The notes under the pieces are model-generated. The model made no database searches. It was given only the letters and a program-made list of their open reading frames with translations, and was not told the origin of the DNA. From Trichodelitschia bisporula (taxonomy: Eukaryota), in NCBI GenBank assembly GCA_010356995.1, contig ML996696.1, forward strand, positions 808,364-872,363: a DNA stretch of 64,000 bases, written 5' to 3'. Of this stretch, positions 12,436 to 30,824 are shown in pieces. Numbering within the stretch: position 1 is the first letter of the stretch; every line of letters begins with the position of its first letter. Position numbers and translations under genes: made by a program.

Positions 12436-13966
12436 ATGAGCGGGCACGACTGGGTTGGGCGTGCGATCGAGGTGGTTAAGAAGGCGATCGAGTATGACCA
12501 GGCGGAGAACTATGAGGAGGCATACAAGGCGTACATGAATGCTTGTGAGGAAGCGCTGCTGGATTCGTGGGACAAGTGCTAATGATGGGCAGTGGAGCAC
12601 TTTATGCTAGCGTTGAAGTGTGAGTGATGCTGCTTGAGGCGTACTGCCTGGCTGACTGGTGCAGGGGAGAAGAATGCGGCGAATAAGGAGGTATTGAGGA
12701 AGAAGGTGGCGGAGTACATCTCGCGGGCGGAGAAGCTGAAGCAGCATCTGGACGATCAAAACGACAAGAAAAAGCCGAGTGCCATAGGGTCAAATGGCAA
12801 GGTTTCAGGCACCGGGGCCAAGGGAAAGTGCGTGGATATCGGCACTCGCTGAACAACTGAGTCGCTAACCCAAGTCAGGGCGGATGAAGAAGAAGATGCC
12901 GATTCCAAGAAGCTCAGAGGTGCCCTCGCTGGAGCTATCCTACAAGACAAGCCCAACATCAAGTGGGAAGACGTGGCGGGTTTGGAACAAGCAAAGGAAG
13001 CGCTGAAGGAGGCCGTCATTTTGCCCATAAAGTTTCCTCATCTCTTTCAGGGAAAACGCCAACCATGGAAGGGAATTCTACTCTACGGCCCCCCAGGTAC
13101 GGGTAAAAGTTACCTCGCAAAGGCCGTGGCGACGGAGGCGAACAGCACATTCTTCAGCGTCAGCAGTAGTGACTTGGTGTCAAAGTGGATGGGTGAGAGC
13201 GAACGGTAAGGCTCTCTAACATTTTACGAGTTATTCTAACGGCGCCAGTCTCGTAAAGCAGCTCTTCAACATGGCCCGAGAGAACAAACCATCCATCATC
13301 TTCATCGACGAAATCGACGCCCTCTGTGGTCCCCGCGGTGAAGGCGAATCAGAAGCGTCCCGCCGTATCAAGACGGAGCTGCTGGTGCAAATGGACGGCG
13401 TGGGCAAGGACTCGCGCGGCGTGCTCATCCTCGGCGCGACTAACATCCCCTGGCAGCTCGACGCCGCTATTCGCCGTCGCTTCCAGCGCAGAGTACACAT
13501 CAGCTTGCCAGACCTGCAGGCCCGCATCAAGATGTTCGAGTTGGCGGTGGGGACTACGCCTTGCAAGCTTACGCCTGCAGATTACCGTCGGCTCGGAGCG
13601 CAGAGCGAAGGTTACTCAGGGAGTGATATCAGCATCGCGGTGCAGGATGCTTTGATGCAACCTGTGCGGAAGATTCAGACGGCGACGCATTACAAGGAGG
13701 TATGTATCCCCTTTAATCGTGTTGCAAATTTACTGACCCACCAGGTCATCGTGGACGGCAAATCCAAGTTGACGCCTTGCTCGCCCGGCGACGCTGGCGC
13801 CATGGAGATGGACTGGACGCAGGTGGACTCTGAGAGGCTAGAGGAGCCGCCGCTGCTGTTGAAGGATTTTGAGAAGGCCATTCGTACGGCACGGCCAACG
13901 GTTAGCCAGGAAGATCTCATCCGCAATTCGGAGTGGACGAAGGAGTTTGGTAGCGAGGGGGCGTGA
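12436..13966 (+). CDS. VPS4: AAA ATPase Vps4 (ESCRT-III disassembly), 6 exons
   Basis: MIT domain, GPPGTGKS Walker A, IIFIDEID Walker B, LTPCSPGD beta-domain, [10 protein letters not shown]-terminus. Confidence 0.97.
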
Positions 13967-14339
13967 TTGCACATATGCAGGGTTTGCGCCAGCATGTATA
14001 AATGCATGTTTAGTTCTCGAACTTGGTAATGAGATGATGTGGAGTTGGGTTGAGGGTAGAGGAATATAGGGGACATGATTACGTCTATGAATGCCTTGTT
14101 TGTGGTGGGGCGGAAGTGTAGCACTCGGTAGGGATCTGGATACCATTACGCATGGCGTTGACACTGAGCGGTTGTTGTTTGCGTTTGTGGAGGGATGGTG
14201 AGCGCGTGGTCAGAATGTATACGTATCACACACAAGGGGCATGAGGTTCTGGTGTTGAGTACATTTCAATTCCTCGTGATATTCTTGCCGTCAACGGTAG
14301 TGTCCAGCAACTCTTGGTTATCATCTACCATGCTAATAG

Positions 14340-14945
14340 TCCACACAATGAACAACCAAACAGGGACATGGGAGGCGAGGGTTGGCATCCCGACCGCGAG
14401 CGTTGCTAACTGTAGCAAACTCAACCACTTCCTGACAATCTCGCTCTTTCCGTTCCGCATCTTCCGTTCTTCAGGATGCGTCCGCCGGCCCGCTTCCAGC
14501 ATTGATCCAAATCCGACCGTCCTGGGCCAAAGTACTTCAACCGCCCAACCCCTAACGACATGGTAATTTTGAACAGCAGGCCTAGCAGCCCCGGGTTGCC
14601 ACCTCTGATGCCAGAGTCTACACGGCGAGCAACCGAGCAGCGACATAGGAGGAACGGGTTGTTGCCCCGACCGCGAGCGCTGCTAATCGTTGACAGCTCC
14701 ACCACTTGTTGACAATCTTTGTCTTTCCTTTCTTCGGGATCCGCCCACAAGCCCGCTTCTAGCATTGATCAACATCCGATCGCCCTGGGACGAAGTGCTT
14801 CAAGCCCCCATGAAATCGACGTCTTCAACGGCAGGACCAGCAACCCCTTGGTCACTGCCTCTAATGCCAGAATCTACAGCATGAACAACCAAACAGAGAC
14901 ATGCATTTCGCGCATTTGGGACCCGGCGGGGGATGGCTAATCGTG
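14340..14945. repeat. Degenerate tandem repeat A, ~265-280 bp, about 2.3 copies
   Basis: ccgaccgcgagcg(t/c)tgctaa at ~14390/14670; cccgcttc(c/t)agcattgatc at ~14490/14752; atgaacaaccaaacag at ~14348/14881. Confidence 0.8.
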
Positions 14946-15419
14946 AGCCATCCTCCGGCCCGGACACACCGTCCGTCTCCGGCATTCGCTGCACCAATTC
15001 CTGAGCTCATTCTTAAGCCTGCAACCGCTCGTCGGACCCGATCACCGTCCGCAAAAGGCGCAATCCGGATCTAAGACTCGCCGCGGTACACGCCCGGATG
15101 GGGGCTTCGACGAATTCGACCATACCTTTTGATCAGAGGGAATAGCTCTGATTGCTGCTTTGATCGGATCGGATAGACGAGACGAGTGCAAGTGTAGGGA
15201 TCGAAGAAGTGCAGGAGGTATCTGTTGCCGTCGAAGATGGTTCACAGAACATCAAGTCCCCGGCTCTGTCCAGAGAGCACACCGCCACGCCTGAGAATTC
15301 TTCCGTAGGGTTGCTGCCCCGGCAGGGAGAGCCCCCTCAGGTAGCTGCCGGCCCTGTTCAAGGAAGCTCCGGAAGCTCCGGAAGCAGTGCGTTGTTGCCC
15401 CTGGAGACAGCGACGCCCG

Positions 15420-16640
15420 GAACGGCAGCGAGAGGAAAGCGATAGAAGAAGGGTATCCAAGCGATGCCTGTGCGGCTGTGTCGAGCACGCTCTAGAAGAA
15501 GCGGGTATCTGGAGCTGAAGGCGGCGCAGGCACGAATTTGTCGCGATGGTTGGTTCCCCGACACCAGATTTTGAGAGCCATGGAGTCGAGGAATGTTGGT
15601 CCGCGAAAGCAGAGGAGAGTTCTGGGGATCAGAAAGGTTGATGTCGCTGGTATGATGCGTCATGAGGAACACGCTCTGCCCGACCGGGTTCCACGGACAC
15701 ATTGCCTGGATCCCACATGGAACGGACCCATTGATAGGGTCCTTCGCCGTCCTTGGAACAGCCGCCGGGCCCGACCACAGTCCGCAAGACGCGCAACCCA
15801 GCCCCATAGGATAGTGGTGGTAATATCCGGGCTAGCTCTGCCTCGAAAGCGCACCGCAACACCAGAGTAATAGGAGAAGGAGTAGGAGGCCCGGACTTGG
15901 AGCCGTCTGGTAGAAGACGCTAGAATACCGAGCGCGCTCTGGCAACGAGGGGACATCCAGCGCCGAGTCGGGCGGGGTGAGGTTGTTATCGGGCCTCTAG
16001 TGATGCCTGGAGTGATGTGTGGTTGCCGTGGTGATCCCCAAGACACCATGTCCGTGAAAATTTCACTTTGGTCTTGGTCGACAGCTTGCCCTTTGAGGAC
16101 GAGACTTTGGAGGTGTGTATCCGGGGCTAGTTCTGCCCCAAAAGCGTACCGCAACGCCGGAGACTTCCGAAACCCGGATGAATGCCCCTATCTGCCTTCG
16201 TTTTCAGCCTTGACTACATCGCATTAATCTCCCAGACAGAGAATGGGAATCGACTTGCCTCCTGCAGGCGCTCGAAGCTTTTCGAGCATTGGACACGCCT
16301 TTAAGACTGCTACTGCGAGTTAGCCAGCTGGACAACTCGCGATTGGACAACAGTTAAAAGCCCACCTTCGGCTCCAACTTTGCAGCCCCTTTCGACGTCA
16401 CAATGGTTGAACAAAGGGCGTGTAATGTTTATAGGGGAGAGTAGAAAGCCCGCCCGGCCTTGGAGTCATCCGAGTAGAGGCCATTAGCATACCGAGCGTG
16501 CTCTGGTAATGAGCGGACATCTAGCGCCGGGGTGGGCACACGGGCGAATTCGTCGTCGAAGTTTGCTGCCGGGTACCAGATATTGAGAGCCATGGAGTCG
16601 TAGGGACATGGTCCGCTCAAGGGCGCATTGAACAACTTTC
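15420..16640 (-). repeat. Degenerate repeat B (~500-560 bp spacing, ~3 partial copies) with a decayed coding-like frame on the minus strand
   Basis: tgagagccatggagtcg at ~15572/16583; ataccgagcg.gctctgg.aa at ~15925/16489; translates as DSMAL.IW and ALDV.SLPE.ARY. Confidence 0.6.
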
Positions 16641-16949
16641 AGTACGTGAGGCAGGTATTCTCGGCATGCCGACAGCTCGTCGAAGTTGTACTGGACGTCT
16701 GGAATACCTCCACGGTGCGCTCTACTGCCTTCTTTCTTGCCTTCTCTTCCTCATGCGGGTGCCTTCCTAGCTAAATCTGTGTGGTCTTCTGGACTAGTGC
16801 GTGCATGTCGAAGGTGCGCTCGTCTTCCCTGCGGGGACGAGAGGCGGTGTGAACTGAGTCCGGCGCGCAGGGGGCCGCATCCTTGTCTTTCTTGTCCGGC
16901 CTGACACAAGAGTCATGAGATCGACGGCGTGGCTGCGCCGGCCGCGGAT

Positions 16950-18230
16950 GGCGATAGTTCCGTACCGGAGTCAGGAAGGAGGCAGGCGAATACAATGTAG
17001 TCGATTGGCGCCATGCCGAAATGGGACGGCCTCAAAGGACACCCGAGCCGCCGAGCGCGCGATACGGTCGTGATCTGGAGTTGTATTCCGAGCCGGGCCA
17101 ACTTGCGGGCCGAAGGGGTGCCGAGGGCGCATGAATCGAAGAAGCGCACAACCCAGCGGCAAATTTTTAGTCTTCAAAGAACGCCTAGCCGCGAGCAGAT
17201 GCTGATGGTTTCGTAGAGGAGTCAGGGAGGAGGCAGGCGGACGCAATACGGCAGGAACTACATCCCCCGGGATGGCTCAGTACTCAATAAGTCCTGGATG
17301 GAGACGCGTAAGGCAGCTTCTCAATGTCGCGCCTCGCCCGCCGGGCGCGGAGTAGCGGGAATTTGCAGTTGTGTTGCGAGCGGAGGCAACGTCCGGACCG
17401 AGAGTGTTCAAGAAGGCAACCCAATACACCTGGTGACATCGGGGCGCGCGAAGGCACACCGACATAGCTCCTTTGTGATGTCCTCCAGGTGAGACACGGA
17501 GTCTGAATCGCCTTGTACTGTGTCGGGCCGGAAAAGGGGGGGCGGTGCGAGTGCCCGGCGGCAACAGAACGGCCAGTACGAAGCATGGTACGGTAGTGGT
17601 ACATGGGAGGCCAGTAGGCCCCACGAATTCAAGGCGGAAACTTTCAGCCCGGCTGCCCCGCGGAGTTTGTTGGTAACCTGGAGTTGAATTGCGAGCCGAG
17701 CCAACGTCCGGACCGAGGGCGTTCAAAAAGGCTGCCCCGCCGGACCGACATGAATCCTCCGGGATTTTCCCCAGAAAGACACGAATTTGGCGTTGCCGTA
17801 CTCTGTACCGGGCCGGAATAAGAACAATGTCAGGGCAGGCAACGCTCGCAGTGGGGCCAAGGTGAAGTACAGGCGGCGGTCCAGAAAAGGCCGAGCAGGC
17901 CCCACGAATCGAATACAATAACTTTCAGCGCAGATGCCCCGCGGGGTATGGTCGTGATCCGGGGTTGATGCGAGCCGAGCCAACGCCTGGGGCGATGGAC
18001 TTGAGTCGTCGGGCCGGGAACGGTTTGCGATTGGGTTGCTGGCGGCAACAGGACGGCCGAATACCGGAGGAGGGAGGCTGTCTAGACAAGGCCGAGCAGA
18101 CCCCACGAGTAGTTTGGCTTGATTTGAACCCAGGCTTTCACCGGGGGACCAAGTGCCCTCGACCGTTCGTATTGCAGACACCGACATGGTCGTCGGCTCG
18201 GGCCAACGGAGCTCGCTCAGGCGGAGCATA
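16950..18230. repeat. Degenerate tandem repeat C, ~290-310 bp, 4-5 copies
   Basis: (g/c)cgagc(c/g)g(a/g)g(c/g)caac motif at ~17088, 17376, 17691, 17970; aggccccacgaat at ~17616/17896. Confidence 0.75.
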
Positions 18231-18266
18231 AGTCAGCATCGAAAATTTCACACCCACTAGTCTCCT

Positions 18267-18348
18267 GGTCTTATAGTGTAGTTGGTTAGCACACGGGATT
18301 CTGATAAGAAGCTTTCCCGGGACCCCGGTTCGAGTCCGGGTAGGACCT
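18267..18348 (+). tRNA. tRNA-Gln(CTG) with ~9 nt intron (18305-18313)
   Basis: Acceptor GGTCTTA/TAGGACC, anticodon stem CGGGA/TCCCG with TT-CTG-A loop, T-arm CCCGG-TTCGAGT-CCGGG, A and B boxes, TTTT shortly downstream. Confidence 0.93.
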
Positions 18349-20794
18349 ACAGTTTTGCTTGCAGACCATGACTTTGGCGTGGTAGGCGCCCGGCAGGCGG
18401 GACATAAGGGGGCAAGATGACGGCTGTGTTGCTTCCGGCTGGATGGGCGATGTGGCTCCGCCGCCGGGAACGACCGTGGGATTAGAAGCCGCTGTGGAGA
18501 GGGGGTAACGGGTTGGGGGGGTGTTGTGTGGTCGGTGTTGTGTGGTCGGAGGAGGGAGGCGAGTGGACGGCGGGACACCAGCCCGGGAGAAATGTTTTGC
18601 ATCTGCAGGAAGCCAAAAACAGATACTGTAGGAGATCACCGTACATGAGACGCGTCGCGGAATAGGCGAGGAGAATTTCGCTCCCGAAGCGCCGTGGTTG
18701 TCGCATCGACGTGTATGGGCGGAGACAAGCGCAGCGGCCGCAATAAGTCTCATAGCTGAGTGCCCGAGGGCCAGACCACACAAGCCGTCGTAGGGCTGAT
18801 CTGAGAGGGAGGGTGACTGGACGCGACGTAACACCAGACCGGGGAAAGTCGTTGCTCGATGTTCAAAACCAGACACGACCCTCGTGGGAGCTCGCCGTGC
18901 ATGAAGCGCACCGCAAAATCAATGATGAACTCCGCCCCCCTGAAGTGCCGCGGTGGTCGCCTCGACGCATATGGGCGGAGTCAACCGCAGCGGCCGCAGT
19001 TCGTTGTACCGGCACACGACCGCAATTCGTAGTTTTTATCTTCGGCTGCAATTTCAAGGAGGTGGACCAGGCCGCGAGGCCGGACCAAACTAGGTGTCGT
19101 AAGAGGGGACTAGCAACCGAGAAATCATGTTCCGGCTTTCCCAGCCAGACAAACGCGGGCGGAAGCCGGTATAGGCCTGGAGTAGGAGGGCTCAGGCGAG
19201 CACCAACCATGATGGCCAAGATTGGGAAAAGGAAGGGGAGGCGTGGAAAGAGGCGCCATCCAAAGGTCGGGCTCATTGCCAGGAAGACACCCCACCGACG
19301 CGAACAATACCGCGAAGGAATAATTACAGGACACTCCATCCGGTAGATCCAAAGAGCCCCGGAATGCTGCATCGTGGTAGGAGGCTGAAATATAACCTCC
19401 TGCTCGCAGGCACTATGCTGAAGAAGATGTCACAGCTGAGAGCCGTCGATGGATTTGCTACCCAGTAGAGATACTGAGTAGTGAAGGTGATGTACACCAC
19501 CGACAGCACGAACCGACGCACAGTTATGCAACATACCCGGAGCCGGTCGCCGGTGAGCGGGACGCCATTAGGGGTAGCCTTAGCCGCCCGGCTTTGTACG
19601 CAGCCCAGGCATTCCCCGAACACTTCGGCCTTGTATGCGATTGGTCCAGTAGACATTGCGCGAGGGGCTGGGTCAGTTCGAGTACGATAGAGACTTGAGG
19701 CTTTCCGCTTGCACTCCAGGAGGATGAGAAGGTCCATGGCCCCTGACGACTTCGTACTATACTTGATATGGGGGGAAAGCCTTTCGGTCGAGCCCGAGGG
19801 CGGCTTCTTCGACATCCCAGCCCGTCAAAGCCGTTGAACCGGAGTCGTTCATAAATGAGACGGCCATGCTGGGGGAGCTCGGGGAGGGCTTCGGCTGTTT
19901 TCGCACAGGACTGCTCCATCGGTCAGGGAGTTTACCCCTTTTTGCCGGAGGACGACCTCGTAGGCTACCAAAGGAAAGTTGCAAGATACCTGCCTATGCC
20001 CGAGCCCGGGGGGATGACGAGGAGAGAATTGCGGCCCGAAGCCGACGGCACCGAATGGGCTTTTTGTGGCACCCGCCCGGTTCAACCTGGTGACGGCAGC
20101 CGGGAATGCGAGTGATCAGGTCTCCACCCAGCAGAGAGGTGCGCCCACATAGTCCTTCTTCCTCCCGCGCCGGACCCAGCCACATGGGTAGGCTGGATTT
20201 AAAACCCGGAATGTGGGCAAGGCGCGTTGGGCGCCCTCAGCACCGGAGAGCGGGCCGGAGGTAGATCCAGGAGTGATCAGGTCTCCTTCCAGTTGGGAGA
20301 CATGCCCACATGCGGATGTTTTCTCGCGGGCCGGACCTAGCGACAATGACCGCCGCAAATTTTGGCTTGCGAAAATACCCGTATAATGTTGGCGCAAGAA
20401 TGAGGCAAACAATGTTGATGAAAGCGAGTGTCTAAAAAGTGAAAGTGAAGCCCGTAGCCCTGGGCGGACCTCGCCAAATAGTGATGGAGGCTAGGGTAGG
20501 TCCGGGTGTGATCAGGTCTCCTCCCAGCAGGGAGGCGCGCCCACATAGTCCTTCTTAGTCCAGCGCCGGACACAGCGACAATGAGCTTGAGTACCTTTAA
20601 TGCAGATTGTAGGTCAGAGGCGCGTGGACGCCCTCGGTGTCTGGAGAGCACGCTGCTAAGCGTGGTCGGTCCAGGAGTGATCAAGTTCCACCCAGCAAGG
20701 AGACACACAGACGCATTTTTCGTCCTTCTCTGGCGCCGGACCCAGCCACCATGTGGCTTCAAGTAGGAAAACAGGAATGTGTGTAAGGGGCGCT

Positions 20795-20962
20795 GTGCTT
20801 CTTCTGGTAGTTTCTGGAGTGGTAGTACGCGATGTGGCATTTGGGGCACTGCTTCAGCGGCACGAAGAAGCTTTCTCGGCTCTTGCCGCAGCCGTGACAC
20901 TTCGAGATATCGCCTAGGAAAGCCGTCTGCTGGGGGGAAGCCTCGATCAACTTGTCCACAAA
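20795..20962 (-). pseudogene. MYND zinc-finger gene fragment inserted in a repeat D unit
   Basis: KCHGCGK..LKQCPKCHIAYYHSRNYQKKH matches the MYND pattern C-x2-C..C-x2-C..YCS..CQ..HW with two Cys lost. Confidence 0.7.
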
Positions 20963-21585
20963 GCGCCCTTGGCGCCATGAAGCCGGCCAGGTAGAAGCAG
21001 TAGGTGAAGCAGTGACCAGGTGTGCTCCCAGCAGGGAAACACGCGCCCACATGTCTTCGTCGTTTTCAAACCCCGGAATGTAGCCAAGGGGCGCGGTGAG
21101 CACGTCGGTAGGCGAGGTAGATCCAAGAGCGATCAGGTCTCATCTCAGCAGGGAGACACGCCCACATAAGGATGCTTTGTCCGCTTTGGGCGCCGGAGCC
21201 AGCCATATGGAGATTTTGGTATAAAAACCAGGAATGCGAGGAATGCGAGGAAAGCGCGTGTTGAGTACCGTCGGCGCCGGAGAGTGGGCCGGAGGTAGAT
21301 CCTTAGGGTCTCCTCCCAGCAAGGAGAGACACGCCCACATGCAGTCTGTGTGTCGGGACCCGGCACGGCCACAATAAGGGATCAGACCGAAAAACCCGGG
21401 ATGTAGGCAAGGATCGCGGCCCGAGTGGGCAAGATAGGTCCAGGAGTGCTCGGATCGCTTCCCAGCAGGGAGCCACAAGCCCACATGGTATGATCGGGTA
21501 ATGAGCCGGACCCAGCCACAATCTCGCTGCGGATGGAAAACCCCGGAAAAGTGAGCCGGGTGGATGCAGTGTGTCCGGGCCAACG

Positions 21586-21752
21586 AAGTGCTGTAGCGAT
21601 ACTAACACTGATGAATGGGGATCCCTGGCTAATGTATGCAGCGGCTTGGGTAATGGCAAGCGGCATGCACTCGAGTGTCTGAACCAGATCGATAGTGTCG
21701 CTGGAGGCTCGAATCCCACGACCGAGGGCAGAGTCGAAGTTCCAGTTGAAAA
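21586..21752 (-). pseudogene. NB-ARC (fungal NLR) gene fragment inserted in a repeat D unit
   Basis: DLVQTLECMPLAITQAAAYISQ matches the GLPL-motif helix of fungal NB-ARC NTPases. Confidence 0.8.
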
Positions 21753-21989
21753 TTCTGGGCTTCCCTCCCGGCACGGACACACGCCCACATAGCTTTCCCT
21801 CAAGGCGAGCCGGACCAAGCCACAATGAATTGCCCTTGGCTAAATCCGGAATGCAGGCAAGGAGCGCTGTAAAAGCCGCCACAACTGGCGGTGCAGACAC
21901 CGACGCGGCAAATCTCGGGCTGGACGCCGTGCTTTTTTAAGGCATCTGGGATGGATCGGGCCGTGTCAGAATCGACGGTGGACCAGCTA

Positions 21990-22800
21990 CAAGGTGCGGA
22001 GAACGCGCCGGGAGAGTAAGATGGTACGAAGGGCCACGGACGGGGCCAGACATCGCTATTTTTGACATCACCGTTATTTGGAGAGAGCCGGTCGTGAACG
22101 AGAGCCGGACGCAACCACAGTTACTGAAGATCGTGGACGGCCCGAAATGGAGGCAGCGTGCGCGTTCAGCGCTTTCGACACCGGGAAGCACGCCGGGAGA
22201 GTTAGATGGGTATGAAGAACAGCGGACGGGGCCGGACATCAATGGGCGTGGATGAGATCCTGGCTTCGAGAGAGTTGGATACGGGAATGGATCAACTGCT
22301 CCGATGCGGGGCCGGAGAACGGCGCAACGGTCGAATGTGAACATCGCTGGTGGTTGCGGTGCCGTTGAGGTGGACAAGAGTGTCATATGGGACCGGTTTG
22401 ACCGCCCTGGAGTCGAGATCGTGTCTCCTTCAGCAGGGACACACGCCCACATACGCGGTCATGGAGCTCTTCCAGGCGGGCCGGACCCAGCCGCATGTAT
22501 ATTTCGAGGTAAGAACCCGGAATGTAGGCAAGGGGCGCGTTCAGTGCCATCGACACCGGGGAAGCACGCCGGGAGAGTGAAATAAGTGCGACTGGTCACG
22601 GACCGGGGTAGAATAGTAGATTTCTAGCATTCGGAAATTCTGGTATGGAGAGTGGGATACTGCAACTGATAAGGCGTTCTGACGCGAGGCCGTAAAACGG
22701 CGCAAAGGTCGAACGTGAGCACCAAGGGCTGTTGCAGTGCTGTGTATGTTGATGATACAATGCAGTATGGGACCGTTTGACCTCCAGGGGGCCGAGGGAC
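21990..22800. repeat. Degenerate repeat E, ~375 bp, about 2 copies, including a repeat D-like core
   Basis: cgccgggagagt at ~22006/22191/22567; acggcgcaa.ggtcgaa.gtga at ~22319/22697; atgggacc(g)gtttgacc at ~22387/22767. Confidence 0.75.
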
Positions 22801-23439
22801 ACACAATGCCAGGCAATGCTGCGCCCGGTCAAGTTTGGAGCTGCTCGATGAACGGCCCGACCAGCCCCGAGGAGCGACCGAAATTGTACGACTTGTTGGT
22901 GCTCCAGTATTTGAAGTCCCTGGAGCCGAGAGGTGTAAATACGCGGAACTTGACTACCACCTGCGGCCTGGCGAGGCTGGGAACTGCTCAATCACGGTAG
23001 GCAGTGAGCCACCTGGATGGGTGGCCCGGCCAGACCCAAGGAGACGGGGACCAGTATGAGAGATGGTCTTTATTCCAGGCTGTGAAATGCCGGAGACAAG
23101 ATATATGTATTTCCTCGCCCGTCCTGTAACCAGATCAGTACTCGTTGACAGAATATCAGAGATCGAAGACTTCGTACCTGCAGACCACGCCCCCGTGAGA
23201 CGTCGCTCAGCAAGGAGGACGCCGGCAGGCGATGCGTGCGCACGTTTCCATACCAGGCCGCGCAAAGGCAAGGCCAGTTAAACTGCGTCAAGCCATCTCC
23301 CTAGGGCATGGTGAGGCTGTATTAACCCCCCGATCCGATCCATATACCACGAAGGAAAGAACCGTGATGGCAGTGGAAAGGCCGGAACACACGGACGGCG
23401 ATCAAGTTGGGTGCTGCACCGCCCGGCAGGACGGGCGGG

Positions 23440-26400
23440 TGAAGATGAGCGGACGGTGTGCCCGCGAGCCATAGGATGCAGCGGATCTGAGCCAGAACGA
23501 CAGCCGTGAGGGCAAGACGAGGCGCGCGGCAGAATATGGTGTTGGATGGCAAATCCGGACTGAAAAGAACTTCTCCAGGAGCGAGGAAGCCCGGCGGTGG
23601 GAAGTCAAGCCACCCTTCGGTGGTGTCCAGGACCGAATTTGCATATGCGTTGCTGGTATCAAATGCCCACGGTTCCAGACGCTGGGTAGTGCTGCGAGAG
23701 TGAGGTCGATCCGGTTGTGCACTGCCGCCCGCCGTAAGACCAGGACAAGGTATGCGGGAATGAGAACATCCAAAGTGCGGAACCTGCGGAGTCCAATTTC
23801 CAGCAAAATCATCCGGTGGTAAGAAAAACAAACTCCTGACTGCGGGGAGATCCCCCTTGGAAAGACGACCAAGGGGTATGCCGCGAATGGATGACCACGA
23901 GAGAGAACCGCGGCCGTGAGGGCGAGACGAGGTGCAGGGCAGCCATATGATGGTTCATTTTTAAACCGGGCTGGACAGCATGCCGAATCAATCAATTATG
24001 CTCGAAGATAGTCCATTGAACTGCCGCCGACGTCAGACCAGGACAAGACATGCCGGAACGGAAACATACCTCTGCTAGCCATGTCGTCTAGCCGCAAATC
24101 GACGGCCATTTTCGTGGTCCGGGAAAAGCTTGAGTATGGCACGAGAGCAATTGTGCGAGAAAGCACTCGATATGAGCCTGTGGGTGCTGACGGTATTGAC
24201 GGGAGATAACCGCGGCAGCGACGCAGAGACGAGGCGCACAGGAGACATGAGCGAATCGTGACCAGGGCCGGGCTGAACAGCAAGCCGAATGCGACATCAA
24301 GTTCGAACGCCAGGACGGCTTCGTGCTGCCTCTAACGTCAGACTAGGATAAGGCAGCGCCGAAACGGGGACATACCTTTCGAAAGCCACACCGACCAACC
24401 GCAATACTATGGAGCGTTTGGTGGCCCGGATAAACCGGAGTATAGAACGAGAGCAGTTGTGCGGAAAAGTACTCGATATGAGCCAGTGGGGTGCCGATAG
24501 GAGTGATGGGATAGAACCGCGGCAGAAAGGGCAAGACGAGGCGCGGAGCAGCTGTACCATGCTGGGAGTTAATTCCGGGCTGAACAGCAAGCTGAAACAG
24601 TCCCTTATGCTGGAAGCTGGTCCGTTGCACTGCCGCCAGCGTGAGACCAGGACAAGGCAGAGCAGAAAGGAAACATACCTCAGAGTAGCCCCATCCCTTT
24701 AAAGAGCCACACCGGGCAGCCGCAATGCGAGATGATCTCGGGCCGTCCGGATAAGCCTAATCAAGATCACCGGCACCATTATCGCCGCCCCCGGAACTGT
24801 CGACCCTGGGCATTCCCGTTAAGGTATTTTCGCACTTCTGAGCGCGGCGGGGCGAGATGATACCCTGCTCGAGGGCGGAAGAAATCGAAAGCTCCTTGAA
24901 GTCTGGGAGAACAGAAACCCAGGACGCAAGTATGAGAGAAAACTCGCGAGATGAGCCAGTAGGCTCGCCAGGATGGCGAGAGAACCGCGGCAGTGAGGGC
25001 GGGATGAAGCACACGGCCAGAAATGGGTTCATAAGTGATTAATCCGGGCTGAACAGCAAGCCGGATCAGTCGATTATGTTCGAAGTCGGGTTGTTGTACT
25101 GCCGCCGACGTTAGATCAGGACAAGGTAGTACCGGAACGGAAACATACCCCGATAAAATCCCCCTTGGAGAGCCACACCGGGCAGCCTCAACTACGGCGT
25201 ACGATGTGTGATCCGGGCAAAGCCAGAATATAGGACGAGACCAACTATGGTCGAAAAGAGCTCGAGATAGGCGGCATGGGCTCGCCAGGAGAGAATCGCG
25301 GCAGTGAGGGCGAGACGAGGCGCAGAGCAGACATGCATCTTTTGTTTCAAAATCCGGGTTGAACAGCAAGCCGAGTCAGTCGATTATGCTAGAAGCTGGC
25401 CCCTTGTACTGCCGCCGACGTCAAACTATGACAAGCCAGTACGGGAACGGGAAGATACCTCGATGACACCCCCCTGGAGGCCACACCGGCCAGGCGCAAT
25501 GACTGGAGCATGATGTGACCCAGGCAAGTGGAGAAATGGGGCATAGGAAGCCAATGCGCAAGAAAGCACCCAGATAAGCCGCTAGCTCATCCGGCTTATA
25601 AGAGAGCACCGCGATCGTAAGGATAAGGCGAAACGCAGAGCAGACATAGCCATGTGCTGTGAAACAGGACAGAAAGGCAAGCCGAATGTATTAGTGAAGT
25701 TAAAAGCCGGCCCGTTGTACTGCTGTCGACGTTAGGTCAAGACAAGGCATACGGGAATGGGAACATACCTCGGTGAAATCCCCCTTGGAGACGTGGGAAG
25801 CCAATGCGCAAGGAAGCACCCAGATAATTGGCGAGCTCATCCCGGTGATAAGAGAGCACCGCGGCCGTGAGGGCAAGACGAGGCGCAGAGCTGACATCGT
25901 GTCCTTTATTGTAAAACCGAACAGAACAGCAAGCCGAATATATCGTCCAGGAAATAAACCGGCCCGGCCGGATACTGTCGCCGACGTTAGATCAGGACAA
26001 GGCAGAGCAGTAAGACAACATACTTTGCTAAGAACCCCTTAGGAGGCCGCGCCGGCCAGGCGCAATGTAAGATGTCTGGGCCGGCCGGACAAGGAAGAGG
26101 ATGAGATGCGAATAAAATGCGGTCAAACTCGAGATGAACCGATGAGCTCAGGACGGACGCTAGCAGGACAGGAATCGCATAGAAGAGCAGCGGCCCGGGA
26201 AGACTGCGATGTGCAGAGAAGAATCAGCGATGGTTGAGAGGGTATCGGGAACATACCACGTCGAACCCCCCTTGGAGAGCCACACCGGCCAGGCGCAATG
26301 TAAGATGTCTGTGCAGGCCGGAGAAGGAGGAGGATGGAATGAGAGTAATACGCGGGAAAAGCACTCGAGATGAGCGGATGGGCTCGTCACAGACAGGAAT

Positions 26401-26440
26401 AGCAAGGGAGGGAGTTGGTCCGTGAAGCCTGCGATGTACA
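23440..26440 (-). repeat. Degenerate tandem repeat F, ~305 bp, 9-10 units, each with a minus-strand intron
   Basis: gtgagggc(a/g)agacgaggcgc, ctgaacagcaagccga, ctgccgccgacgt(c/t)aga, cccttggagagccacaccgg recur about every 305 bp. Confidence 0.92.
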
Positions 26441-26555
26441 GAAGAGATTCGGCGGTGGTTTAGAGAGAAACGACAACAGAAGATGGATTGAGAGGAGGAT
26501 GAGAGGAGTGGATTGTGTGATTGAAGGCTGATGTGGGATGATGTGTTTGAGCGGA
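23440..26555 (-). ncRNA. Putative spliced repeat-derived long non-coding RNA
   Basis: 8 intact GT-AG introns with branch sites, upstream TATA and CT-rich leader, no long ORF; 3' end unknown and transcription is inferred. Confidence 0.5.
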
Positions 26556-26575
26556 AGATGGGGCGGTATATATAC
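26470..26575 (-). promoter_or_regulatory. Putative Pol II core promoter: TATATATA plus pyrimidine-rich leader
   Basis: gtatatatac at 26566-26575 followed on the minus strand by ~90 nt of C/T/A-rich, ATG-free sequence like the 5' leaders of other genes in this window. Confidence 0.55.
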
Positions 26576-26609
26576 TCTCCAAACCAGCATACGGCGGCTT
26601 TGCAGGTCG

Positions 26610-26725
26610 AGAAGGACTCTGTCGCCGTGGTGGAAGGACTCTCGGACCGTGGAGTAACGACTCACGCCGTGGAGGAAGGACTCTCTCGCCGTGAAGAAGG
26701 ACTCTCTCGCCGCGGAGAAAGGAGC
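26610..26725. repeat. Minisatellite G, ~21-24 bp x5 (gaaggactctctcgccgtg)
   Basis: Direct tandem copies visible in the sequence. Confidence 0.85.
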
Positions 26726-27180
26726 GCGGGGCGTACGGCATGCAACCGCCCCATCCGTCGAGACGCACTGCCCTATATCGCCATCAGGCGCAACAGGGAC
26801 CGAGAGCAAGCCGTATGAAGAAAGTCGTTCGCACTATCGCCTCGTCTCGACTTCCGCCCAGCATCCGGAGACATCGCAGGTGAAGTAAGAACCTCGCGCC
26901 GTCCGGGACGCAGCCGCTCCATCCGTCGAGTCACACTTCCCTCCGTCAGCATCAAGAACAACAGTGACCATGAGCAGGCCCTATGAAGAAAGTCATTTGC
27001 GCTACCAACTCATCTCTCCTTCCACTATTCACACCCTTAATGAGTTTGCGGCCATACCTCAAAGGCACATACCTCACGTTCATATATTGCCACAGCCTGA
27101 CTTCCTCCATCGACAACCAGCACAATGAGCCTGCCTTAACCCATCGAGCGCACATACCTCACACCACCTCCCCAACCCAC

Positions 27181-29821
27181 CTACCCACTCAACTCAACCC
27201 TCCTCGCAAGCACCTTCCTCGCTTCCGTAACCCCCACCCTCACCAACCCCAACTCCCCAAGACACACCCTCGCCTCCTCCCCGTCGCCAAAAATCCTCTT
27301 CTCAACGCCCCACAAGGTAACCTTCCCCCCATCCCCTCCATCATCCCCTTCCTCCCCCCTCCCCCCCTCCAACCCAACCAACCAAGCCCCCTCAACAACT
27401 CTCCTCAACCCCTCCCCAACAGCCACACTAACCAACTTCACCAAACACCCCCTCACAGCCTGCACATCCGCGCCAAACTGCCCCGCCCCGGCGGCACTAA
27501 ACTCGCGCCTTAGAAGCACATGCTCAAACAACTGATTATCAATCGCATGCGCCGTCTTCCGCGCAACACGGTGCAGCGGCGCAGCACCCAGCGCCTTGGC
27601 CAGGTATTCGAAATGGGTTGACAAGGTCGTGAGCAAGTTGTCGAGTTCCGGGGTCGGCGGGAGCGAGGGGAGGGAGTCTGGACTACGGGCCGCTGGGACA
27701 GGAACCGACGTCGAGGGCGCGAGGCTGGACCAGGGGTTTATCCGGGAATAGGCTGAGAGGGAGTTGCGCACGTTGTTGATTAGTAAGTCTGCGATGACGG
27801 CTTCGGTGCGCTCGCGCAGCCGCGTGTAGCTCGCCGCCGTTTCGTCGAAGAGCGCCCCCGTAGCCGTAGGATCGTCGAGCTCATCCGGCGGGGTGGACAC
27901 GGCGCGAGACGTGCGGGCCGCGACCTGGGCTAGATTCATGCTCCCCGATATATTTTGCCCCCTTGTGGCAGCGCGGTGTTGCAGTTCTGACCAAAGGGAG
28001 AGGAAGAAGACGTCGTCGCTCCAGTCGCGCATGGCCCTTTCGAGGTACTCTGCGCTACCGTAGATGCGGCATAGACTCTCGAGGCCGGCGACGCCTTGCA
28101 GGGTGATTTGCTCTTCGCGGCTGGTGCGGCCGATGGTGGAGGTGCGGGAGAGGTAGGCGGCTAGGCCGTCGGCGAGGCGCTCGTGGAAGAGGTCGAAGAT
28201 GGAGATTTGGATGTCGATTAGGAAGCGGAGTTTTTGGGAGAAGGAAGTTAGGGTGCGGTAGTGGCCTGGATGCATTAGGATAGGATCAAAGGTCACCAGA
28301 GCACGAACCTGTGGTAGCCTCGAGAAGATCGTTGACTCGGATTGCGGCCTTGGTCGGCTTGGTGCTCTTCGCATCGACGCCATCGTAGTCCAGATCGAAG
28401 CTATCAGGAGCATCGACGATCTCCTGGTAGCGGGCCAAGGCAACTGCCAGATCAGCTCTCATCCAACAGAGCGGCAGCACAACCTACAGTCCTTCTCCAC
28501 CTTGAGCCACTGTTCGAACCAATCATTCGCACTGAGCACTTCCCAGGCAAGGCCTCTCCAGCATTCCCCTTCCGCCCCAGCCTCGTACCGCCATTCATCC
28601 CGCAGCGTGGTGTCAAATTTCATTACCTCATGGATGAGGTGGCTCAATAGCTGCGGCCGACCCGAAACCTTGGGAAGCGTAGTAAATATTTTCGCCCTAA
28701 CCATCGGCAGCAAGGCTGTGACGAACGCAGACGTGGCATCGATATACGCAGGGTTGCGGGCGATGCTCGTGCCCCTGAACTTCTCCAGCAGCACTGGCTG
28801 CAGATTGTCATCCATAAAGTCATTGTACTGTCCGAGAAGCTTGTCCGTGACGTGGAACAGAAAGTACTCGGGTCTGTCCAGTCTATTGGTGGGGCGATCG
28901 GTCTCGAAGTGATACCTGAACGCCAGCTCGAGGGGGTGCACCATCGCCTGCAGTGGCAGCAGCACAAGTGGCGCTGTGGCAGGCGAATTGCCTGCTTCCT
29001 CTCGGGCTTCCTCTCGGGCCTCCAGCTCGGGTTTCTGCAGCTCCAGGAGCTTACCGATAGTGGCCCTGAAGCTGCCAACCATTGTCGGAGGCACCGTAGC
29101 GTCGGGAGATGGCCAGGAGATCTTCTTGAGGAGCGTCTCCAACTCACCGATGAACGATTTCTGGATACGATCATGCAGCGCCTTCGTCTTCTGCGCAACA
29201 GAGTCAAGAAGATGCGGGGCAGCGCCCTCAGCCGCATCCTGAAGTGGCTGGAGTGATACGGACAGACTGTGCAGGTGACGATATGCATCAATCGCCTCTG
29301 CATCGTGCGTGCCTAACCGCGCCACGCCCTCATTGCTGCCCAAGTCAGGTCGTGCCATGCATTCAGCGGAGGAGACAGAGCACACCAACCTCAATCGATC
29401 AACCTCTCGGAGCATCTCAACATATCCATTAGCAATCTCCAACCGCCGCATCTTGTCCATACTCGACTCGAAGCGTTTCACAGCCGCATCGCTAGTATCC
29501 GAATTCGTGGCAATCAGGAGGCGCCGGTCGATGTCCGCCTGCGCGCGCTCGAAGCGGTCTACGCGCGCACGGAGGCTGCTGTCATGTTCGGATGCGGCGC
29601 GTTTGGCCGATTCGAGGTCTTTTTGGGCGACATGGATCTTGTTCGGGTGTTAGAGCTGTCATAACGGGGAAGGGGGGGGAGGGGCTGAAGAGGCACACCT
29701 GGTCCTCGAGCAGCTTGCGCTGCGCAGAGACACTATCCAGCAGCTCGCGGAGCAAATCAAAGTCGGCCGGCGTCTGTAGCTTGTCGTCGAGGTAGTCGCC
29801 GACTCGGACGTCCCTCGCCAT
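27181..29821 (-). CDS. TIP20: RINT-1/Tip20 family, Dsl1 tethering complex subunit, multi-exon
   Basis: DYLDDKLQT, FRYHF..RPTNRLDRPEYF, LLSHLIHE..FD, WSDDVFFL, FSAAGAGQF. Confidence 0.92.
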
Positions 29822-30824
29822 AGCTGTGGGCCTGCGGTAGACTGGGTTCGGGGGATGCGGAAGCAGGTGGTGTGAGCGTGTTCCGGTATGCGGTGCGTTG
29901 GGCGGCAGAACGGGCGTCTGGTGGCTCAGTCACTCCCCGTACCGTAGATACGATCTCGCACGCGGCGCTTGCCGTGTGTGCTAGGCTAAAGCTGCGGTCT
30001 GCGTCGCTGGCCGCGGGAGCTCTCCGGGTGGATGTGGGATGGAGCACTGGACACGGGGTGCGTTGAAGCGGCTTCGGCCACTTGGGACGCGTTATGACGG
30101 AAGCGAGCTGCGGAACCGATGGGGGAATAAAAGCCTCGTCCTTCCCAGATGAGCTTCCCAGATGAGCTTCTCTTCGCTAAAGTAGGGACCAAGGGGACGG
30201 TCGAGCACAAGGGGCTTGGATAATGGTACGATGAAAGCAGCAGCGGGCGGGAATATCGTCAGAATGTGTGAAGGGCTGGTCCCCTGCCCTGTATTGCCTG
30301 ATGCTTGCTTGCCTGCGCTCTGAGCATGCGGGCGGGGGGTTCTCGCCGTTCGCGATCGGGGGCTGCTACGCTACACATCGGGGGGGTTCTCTCGCCATTG
30401 GAACACTGGCACGATTGGCTACAGCAGAGGGGGGTGCACTGCTCACCCGCCTAACAGAACTCACTAACGGGCGGCCCACCGCCTCCAAACCCTCCCTGCA
30501 GAGGAGGAGCAGAAAGTGGGCAGATCGGCATCGGCTACGGCGTTTACGGGCGAAAAAAAAAGATCTGATCTCAGGCATTGGCGATTCGATCTGCGAGCCC
30601 AGCCCAAATTCTGCCACACAACCACCCATCGAGAAACGCCCTCATCACACACCCAACCCCAAACCGGACGTCCACCCGCCTGCACACCCGAATCACCCTT
30701 CTGTGGTTCAAATCACCGCCGAATCCCGGGTGGACTTGTGCTCCCCGACTTTCCCTCCCAATTCCCTCGTCATAGAACACTAGTTCTACTCAACAAGAGC
30801 ACCCCGCTGCTGACCGCTAAGGAC

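Follow-up and report, generated by a model that had tools for sequence, protein, structure and literature searches.

The analysed window is a 64-kb stretch of the Trichodelitschia bisporula genome. It contains two convergent genes, VPS4 on the plus strand and RINT1/TIP20 on the minus strand, which are separated by a 13.2-kb spacer (13967-27180, minus strand) without any recognisable protein domain. Pfam places Vps4_C at 13802-13963 on the plus strand and RINT1_TIP1 at 27181-29649 on the minus strand. The spacer is made up of a number of degenerate tandem arrays and is spanned by a single long contig of spliced RNA. Its 183 open reading frames of at least 50 amino acids, taken from both strands, include 181 with no Pfam match, the exceptions being Vps4_C and one weak DUF, and none of the 183 contains a transposase, helicase, or Rep domain. 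The only Rfam family found was tRNA, in the 64-kb window at the gathering threshold and in 17000-28000 at E ≤ 1. The sequence between VPS4 and RINT1 is old and decayed throughout. Our literature search, covering fungal NLR, gene-fragment, and tandem-repeat lncRNA loci as well as T. bisporula itself, returned nothing describing such a locus.

The 13.2-kb region yields a long, spliced minus-strand RNA without coding potential. Contigs of 14309 nt (X3) and 13353 nt (X4) span positions 13500-27327; they come from two cDNA-like runs of one sample, which are tentatively labelled as RNA, and show no starts, ends, or levels. The VPS4 and RINT1 introns, with GT..AG borders, are missing from both contigs, which therefore behave as cDNA. 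The 11 listed splice joints, located between 16191 and 26024 (four further joints fall outside the list), are all in minus orientation, and the direction of the RNA follows from these joints in the two runs. Hence, the array, which the first-pass annotation had called possibly transcribed, is supported as both transcribed and spliced on the minus strand. The longest open reading frame of the 12.7-kb spliced model has 242 amino acids, and the array-B exons, with lengths of 256, 254, 420, and 260 nt as derived from the joints, do not preserve a reading frame. A coding repeat protein was ruled out on these two grounds and on the absence of a Pfam match. The transcript, being spliced and having neither a long open reading frame nor a protein domain, has the properties of a long non-coding RNA. 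On the minus strand, TATATATA at 26566-26573, followed by a pyrimidine-rich tract, was read from the sequence and may be this RNA's own promoter.

Array A (20099-22600, minus strand) is exonic and consists of ten units of ~160 bp, each having a conserved core of ~115 nt and a variable spacer. The units are 60-96% alike within the conserved blocks. The contig piece 18351-23122 is unbroken in X3 and X4, and no joint is listed inside the array. A search for structured RNA in array A gave six pairs and zero compensatory changes in RNAalifold. Unit A9 has a long spacer of 530 bp (21870-22400, minus strand), which is related to 22516-22796 and is therefore repeat material, not foreign DNA. A 54-nt intron (23122-23176, minus strand), defined by a splice joint, lies between arrays B and A. 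Comparison of the two arrays gave no sign of a common origin, as the scores of 18 of the 20 unit pairs are no better than chance, and outside the arrays the 64-kb window has no further copies of their units.

Array B (23400-26490, minus strand) comprises ten units of ~305 bp, eight of which carry a sister intron of ~50 nt and GT..AG type. Splicing is observed for six of the eight copies, which are absent from the RNA contigs, namely those at 24021-24069, 24326-24375, 24630-24678, 25099-25148, 25409-25458, and 25975-26023, all on the minus strand. The copy at 25720-25768 (minus strand) has intact signals, but no listed joint corresponds to it, while the copy at 23722-23771 (minus strand) has GG instead of GT and is retained. 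The sister introns are old, with a mean pairwise column identity of ~0.7. Sister introns produced by duplication within one transcription unit, as described for potato RdRp (PMC4974935) and in relation to fungal introners (PMC4457414), resemble array B in having one intron copy per unit. Different from those cases, the host transcript of array B is non-coding and the copies are old.

Five units contain unit-specific extra DNA, referred to as inserts 0 to 4, and all five were confirmed at about the reported places, including the 94-bp insert. All five inserts are exonic. Each occurs only once in the 64-kb window, and blastn and tblastx found no donor within the window for any of them. Significant homology was obtained for one insert (insert 2, to NLR genes); the MYND match of insert 1 is below threshold, and inserts 0, 3, and 4 have no relatives. 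A Pfam scan of the 29 stop-free frames from the five inserts (25 codons or longer) gave a match for the MYND frame only, with an E-value of 0.013. A PDB sequence search with four inserts retrieved neither a MYND nor an NLR chain.

Insert 2 (21584-21757, minus strand) is 174 bp long, was previously placed at ~21586-21752, and lies in unit A8. It takes the place of ~60-70 nt of the unit, which then resumes in phase. The segment 21601-21720 is an NB-ARC fragment in sense orientation, covering the GLPL-type 'MPLAITQAAAYI' region of a SesA-NB-ARC-TPR fungal NLR. Six matches at E ≤ 1e-3 were found among 1.84 billion proteins, and in four of these matches the alignment falls on the motif. Specifically, the insert shares 66% identity with P0003 over 35 amino acids, 60% with P0006 over 40 amino acids within the Pfam NB-ARC match of P0006, and 74% with L001, a SesA...DUF7779-TPR gene, over 27 amino acids. 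It is about as close to P0003 and P0006 as these two are to each other (23/35, hand count on the aligned segments). The piece runs for 65 codons without stop or frameshift and keeps the family motif intact, and the surrounding repeats are 20-40% diverged. It is not an NLR gene, which would have a complete NB-ARC domain including the P-loop as well as N-terminal and repeat domains, since it has only ~40 codons around the GLPL-type motif and does not itself reach the Pfam NB-ARC threshold. Judged by its sequence, insert 2 is a piece of ~120 bp from another gene, an NB-ARC NLR. A word-based search of protein collections, which is weak evidence and possibly did not include the organism's own proteome, gave no donor protein at E ≤ 0.01 among 94 candidates.

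Insert 1 (20793-20963, minus strand; 171 bp, previously ~20795-20962) is a simple in-phase insertion between the complete halves of unit A4, with ~5 nt lost. Its zf-MYND match has an E-value of 7e-4 to 0.04 depending on trimming and scores 14-20 bits versus the Pfam cut-off of 22.7, so that insert 1 is possibly a decayed MYND finger, below the threshold for assignment. Of the two recognisable domains reported for the inserts, NB-ARC is thus supported and MYND is not. The word-based search, again weak evidence and possibly lacking the own proteome, returned no word-sharing protein candidate for insert 1. Insert 0 (20395-20488, minus strand) is a 94-bp stretch in place of the usual spacer of unit A2, with no relative found. 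Insert 3 (23570-23705, minus strand) lies in the array-B unit whose intron copy lost its GT and also has no relative. The same kind of search, with the same weakness and the same possible gap in proteome coverage, gave 81 candidates for insert 3, none at E ≤ 10. A weak PDB match of insert 3 to cyanovirin-N (E 0.016, two 8-bit stretches) was treated as chance. In the ESM Atlas, insert 3 matched unnamed clusters only and insert 4 gave no usable match. Insert 4 (24761-24888, minus strand; previously 24757-24904), again without a relative, splits unit B3, both parts of which match the array-B profile in nhmmer. A target-site duplication at insert 4 was considered and rejected: the two nhmmer matches share 28 model positions, the flanks are unlike, and 95% of shuffles score as well. 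Inserts 0, 3, and 4 may be merely unrecognisable sequence.

The four larger inserts had been noted to read open on the minus strand, in the orientation of the intron-bearing array. We found that such frames are expected from strand composition. Stop trinucleotides have a frequency of 0.0178 on the minus strand versus 0.0332 on the plus strand (17000-27000), and 83% of 986 minus-strand windows of 150 nt have at least one open frame. The open frames of the inserts thus follow from the transcribed strand being rich in pyrimidines. The fifth insert, taken at the exact coordinates of the first-pass annotation, has a stop in each of the three minus frames.

The explanation that we favour, and to which we give about an even chance, is that the inserts are one-off ectopic insertions into an old and unstable repeat tract and are carried passively in the long non-coding RNA. 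Inserts 1, 2, and 4 suggest that the inserts came second, into units that already existed. A few repeat units would later have been hit by one-off insertion of, or replacement by, short ectopic DNA. The likeliest route would be repair-mediated capture, that is, repair of a double-strand break with templated or filler DNA, or a replication template switch. The inserts would then be passive exonic cargo of a non-coding RNA with no function of their own; we infer both this neutrality and the mechanism of insertion. Templated insertions from distant loci at DNA breaks are documented in yeast (PMC11724301). There, too, short pieces are placed singly at a site, without transposon marks, and in some cases the target loses a few to tens of bases. 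The size and single-copy state of the inserts fit this type of event; the junctions are unreadable and no donor was found. In contrast to the yeast insertions, three events here share one repeat-unit position and the junctions are too old to read.

Some observations do not follow from one-off capture. The three array-A inserts and the long A9 spacer all occupy a single unit position, the variable spacer, and this coincidence of the array-A inserts is not predicted by random breaks. The inserts are alike in size (130-175 bp), which has no explanation under one-off capture. Junction microhomology is unreadable in units that are 60-80% alike. No donor was identified for any insert, so that both capture and its timing are presumptive. 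The earlier proposal that gene pieces were captured repeatedly is borne out by a single insert of the five, the NLR piece, and perhaps by a second; the rest may not come from genes at all. The similar sizes and open frames of the inserts need no capture mechanism.

An unlikely alternative is that the inserts are mostly not foreign and that, apart from the NLR piece, they are stretches of the arrays' own spacers or units that have become hyper-diverged. Three of the five inserts have no relative in any search, the 530-bp "insert" of A9 proved to be repeat material, and the insert-bearing units of array A measure 335, 307, and 661 bp, near whole multiples of the ~160-bp period. On the other side, the array profiles fail to align to the insert stretches and B3 is split around insert 4. 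The plus-strand purine share of insert 1 (0.49 versus 0.56 for array A) and of insert 4 (0.50 versus 0.60 for array B) also sets them apart, although by only ~1.5-2 sd.

We consider it quite unlikely that the inserts are relics, in the sense that NLR and MYND genes once lying between VPS4 and RINT1 decayed while tandem duplications grew around them. The failure to find a donor elsewhere and the age and decay of the whole spacer are compatible with such relics. However, unit sequence continues in phase around inserts 1, 2, and 4, as insertion predicts, and the NLR piece has stayed intact over 65 codons despite the 20-40% divergence of the repeats. NB-ARC followed by MYND is not known as a domain order of fungal NLRs, which we also count against relics.

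Capture by a transposon, with a Helitron, Pack-MULE, or similar element taking up gene pieces and the arrays being its internal repeats, had been proposed as well and is very unlikely. Gene-fragment capture is reported for fungal Helitrons (PMC4289320), and fragment-bearing Helitrons and Pack-type elements resemble this locus in carrying short unrelated gene pieces in one transcribed non-coding context. Nevertheless, the five insert borders show no terminal inverted repeats, target-site duplications, or TC...CTRR ends. The one 13-nt inverted pair, which flanks insert 2, is roughly the chance expectation, and no word of more than 5 nt is common to the junction windows. Unlike such elements, this locus has no termini at the insert borders, where element ends were sought, no transposase or helicase among its open reading frames, and no further copies of array units in the 64-kb window, where carrier copies were sought.

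The first-pass annotation also likened the locus to a sequence memory or small-RNA trigger, with a piRNA-cluster-like or CRISPR-like logic, in which the repeat transcript feeds RNAi and the gene pieces silence their donors. We regard this as highly improbable. The locus is indeed transcribed, tandem repeats are able to set off siRNA production in fungi (PMC4358405, PMC12366691), and the NLR piece spans the most conserved motif of its family, so that small RNAs could hit many paralogues. The NLR fragment, however, is in sense orientation and single-copy, similarity among the repeats is only 60-80%, the word-based searches with inserts 1, 2, and 3 brought up no near-identical donor protein, and only one or two of the five inserts are gene-derived. 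Folding of the sequence around inserts 1 and 2 likewise gave neither a hairpin nor an unusual structure (z-scores of -1.5 and +1.3). A piRNA cluster would have antisense fragments or transcription of both strands, and here the NLR piece is sense and the 11 listed joints are all minus. A CRISPR-like arrangement would alternate near-identical repeats with unique spacers of one length, and here the repeats are 60-96% alike, a default spacer is common to most units, and few have unique DNA. In quelling, it is the sequence undergoing silencing that occurs in many highly similar tandem copies (PMC4358405), and each insert here is single-copy in the window. Quelling and TRISS (PMC12366691) resemble this locus in that tandem repeats of an ascomycete are transcribed, and differ from it in that the repeats here are degenerate and the gene fragments single-copy and sense. 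By analogy, the long RNA might still be an NLR regulator that, with its sense copy of the most conserved NB-ARC motif, passes through an RNA-dependent RNA polymerase and Dicer to small RNAs that damp many NLR paralogues in a quelling- or TRISS-like manner, which we hold to be extremely improbable.

Most of what was found is ordinary, namely short pieces of ectopic DNA within an aged tract of repeats, and open frames that are an artefact of composition. Of note, a compact fungal genome keeps a 13-kb repeat-built region that has no recognisable domain, yet is transcribed and spliced. With one intron per unit, array B is a clear case of introns multiplied by duplication outside coding genes. In plants, NLR genes are controlled by miR482 and phasiRNAs. 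If small RNAs arise at this locus, the NLR fragment would allow RNA-based control of fungal NLR genes to be tested directly, and if the damping of NLR paralogues were true, it would be a fungal counterpart of the plant miR482/phasiRNA control.

With ~57% GC and short GT..AG introns, the window has a fungal appearance. The convergent genes VPS4 (plus strand; Vps4_C at 13802-13963, Pfam E = 1.9e-20) and RINT1/TIP20 (minus strand; 27181-29649, PF04437, E = 2.8e-81 and 6e-52) flank the array region. When the stop-to-stop ORFs of 13800-27200 that reach 50 aa (183 in total: 92 minus-strand, 91 plus-strand) were searched against Pfam, the only match besides Vps4_C was a weak one to DUF7160 (E = 0.0067). 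Hence, the spacer of ~13.2 kb is without recognisable coding sequence. Self-comparison shows that it contains six or more degenerate tandem arrays, located at 14338-14902 (period ~277 bp), 17364-17998 (~280-315 bp), 18552-18998 (~253 bp), 20099-22600 (array A, ten ~160-bp units), 23400-26490 (array B, ten ~305-bp units), and 26611-27023 (~22, 42, and 168 bp). The entire 13 kb VPS4-RINT1 interval is built of repeats. The array A unit is composed of a conserved ~115-nt core and a variable spacer, and RNAalifold gave no conserved fold for it. Eight array B units have a mean pairwise column identity of 0.59, with patches from 0.36 to 0.76. The best-kept patches are the intron and two exonic blocks, namely the GCTGTTCAGCCCGG region and the CGCCTCGTCT...CCGCGGTTC region (0.72-0.76 versus 0.36-0.5 elsewhere), and this patchiness reflects either constraint on some motifs or uneven homogenisation. 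A shared origin of A and B units is not detectable, as 18 of 20 comparisons scored at chance.

Four public sequencing runs contain the stretch. X1 and X2 possibly represent the source DNA. One sample gave both X3 and X4, and its label 'RNA?' is a guess. We aligned the X3 and X4 contigs to 13500-30500 and found that they lack one VPS4 intron (13697/13743, GT..AG) and four RINT1 introns (CT..AC), the joints of which are absent from the DNA runs. X3 and X4 thus behave as cDNA. In both runs a single contig spans 13500-27327 (14309 nt in X3, 13353 nt in X4), with at least 11 joints in minus orientation between 16191 and 26024. They include 16191/16259 (67 nt removed, 16192-16258, reading GC..AG as listed, its borders uncertain), 16309/16366, 18269/18351, 23122/23177, and, within array B, 24020/24070, 24325/24376, 24629/24679, 25098/25149, 25408/25459, and 25974/26024. 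The stretches removed from array B are sister introns of ~50 nt, each having GTATGT, a CTRAC-type branch site, and CAG. Among the eight copies of this intron, seven keep the GT, all keep the CAG, and six are spliced; the copy at 25720-25768 has intact signals and no joint among those listed, and the one at 23722-23771 has GG for GT and is retained. As no listed joint falls within 18351-23122, array A appears to be exonic. The 12.7-kb spliced model has no ORF longer than 242 aa, and the reading frame is not preserved across array B exons of 256, 254, 420, and 260 nt, which indicates that the long RNA is non-coding.

The strand of the transcript is taken from splice orientation, the contigs being uninformative on starts, ends, and levels. 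A TATA-type TATATATA box with a pyrimidine-rich tract, at 26573-26480, suggests that the long RNA may have its own promoter. It may instead be a read-through product of RINT1, as the contig break at 27327-27448 coincides with a low-complexity stretch that breaks DNA contigs too. The DNA-run contigs are interrupted, or continue into other loci, at two stretches that each seem to have further copies in the genome. One, 27330-27391, is G-rich and of low complexity and lies in the coding region for the RINT1 C-terminus; the other is the 70-nt stretch 16623-16692. The 81-nt minus-strand intron 18270-18350 (GTAGGT start, GCTAAC branch site, AAG end) nearly coincides with a plus-strand tRNA gene at 18267-18348, so splicing removes the tRNA antisense from the long RNA in the X3/X4 contigs. 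ARAGORN assigns this gene to Ile(GAT); by eye it resembles tRNA-Gln(CUG) interrupted by a 9-nt intron. The only known RNA family that Rfam finds in the window is tRNA.

Five repeat units contain extra unit-specific DNA, which bears out what the first-pass annotation had reported. Numbered by rising coordinate, insert 0 (~20395-20488) lies in unit A2 and insert 3 (~23570-23705) in the first B unit. Insert 1 (~20793-20963) is a clean in-phase insertion in A4, insert 2 (~21584-21757) replaces ~60-70 nt of A8, and insert 4 (~24761-24888) splits B3 into two parts that both match the array profile. In array A the extra DNA always occupies one position of the unit, the variable spacer. All five inserts are exonic in the long contig. 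The longest 'insert', 21870-22400, which that annotation did not include, proved to be repeat material related to 22516-22796 rather than foreign DNA.

The four larger inserts had also been said to read open on the minus strand. Purines are enriched on the plus strand in 17000-27000 (A 0.249, G 0.323), and the minus strand is therefore stop-poor, with 0.0178 stop codons per trinucleotide versus 0.0332 on the plus strand. An open frame is present in 83% of 986 minus-strand windows of 150 nt, and two are present in 41%. Open reading is thus expected from composition and uninformative on coding. The plus-strand skews over 17000-27000 (AT up to 0.29, GC 0.1-0.19) match the minus-strand transcript in extent; the asymmetry could result from transcription-linked mutation bias or from selection for pyrimidine-rich RNA.

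Judged by its protein matches, insert 2 is a gene piece, an NB-ARC NLR fragment lying in sense in the long contig. Searching a full set of 1.84 billion representative proteins with HMMER returned six matches at E ≤ 1e-3; in four of these the alignment falls on and around the motif MPLAITQAAAYI. The identity is 66% over 35 residues with P0003 and 60% over 40 residues with P0006, and this similarity is about equal to that between the two matched proteins themselves (23/35, manual count). The aligned part of P0006 (362-401) is inside its own Pfam NB-ARC match (317-425), and the protein also has SesA and TPR. One locus from a metagenome scan is 74% identical over 27 residues, and its gene has SesA upstream and DUF7779 and TPR downstream of the matched part. 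Insert 2 comprises ~40 NB-ARC codons free of stops and frameshifts, and by itself does not reach Pfam NB-ARC. The remaining two HMMER matches, one a bacterial protein with Ig repeats and the other an unnamed repeat protein, were treated as unreliable. P0001 and P0002, unnamed predicted proteins from other sources, have two or three tandem copies of an NLR 'PLAITQA..YI' segment or insert 2 look-alike, so duplication or repeat embedding of short NLR pieces may occur elsewhere too.

Of the two recognisable domains claimed for the inserts, only the NB-ARC identity is supported. The MYND-finger likeness of insert 1 does not attain the 22.7-bit cut-off (14-20 bits; E = 7e-4 to 0.04 depending on trimming), and insert 1 has no PDB or word-based match. 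Among the five inserts, 29 frames stay free of stops for at least 25 codons; in a Pfam scan of these, inserts 0, 3, and 4 had no match, nor did they match anything in PDB, Atlas, or the word-based search. That most inserts are not foreign is unlikely in our estimate.

The simplest account would be that ectopic DNA entered an unstable repeat tract in a series of one-off events, the inserts then being carried passively within the non-coding transcript; we give it about an even chance. In yeast, breaks are documented to receive templated insertions copied from remote loci (PMC11724301), and the array inserts would derive from the same kind of event. Ectopic insertion leaves unaccounted the common within-unit position in array A and the similar insert sizes. 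None of the five inserts has a second copy within the window, and a word-based search of the protein collection, in which the host proteome is possibly not included, found no close donor protein. We consider it rather improbable that the inserts are what remains of genes once present at this position. Transposon capture, as by a Helitron or Pack-TE, is less probable still. The insert borders are devoid of transposon marks: words common to the junction windows do not exceed 5 nt, TC...CTRR ends are absent, and the only inverted repeat is a 13-nt pair flanking insert 2, close to the rough chance expectation of 0.4 such pairs per 1.6 kb. The spacer ORFs contain no transposase, helicase, or Rep domain in Pfam, and no hairpin or unusually stable fold is seen around inserts 1 and 2. 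A small-RNA memory locus, as first proposed, is very improbable: siRNA production can be set off by tandem repeats in fungi, but in the cases described (PMC4358405, PMC12366691) the silenced sequence itself forms many similar tandem copies, whereas the fragments here are single, in sense, and within repeats 60-80% alike.

Literature searched by organism and by combinations of gene fragments, tandem repeats, lncRNA, and NLR yielded no account of such a locus. The observation made in the first-pass annotation is real; its interpretation overreaches. Each element of the locus is of a known kind, namely ectopic fragment insertion, sister introns made by duplication, and repeat-rich non-coding RNA, and the significance of the locus is modest.
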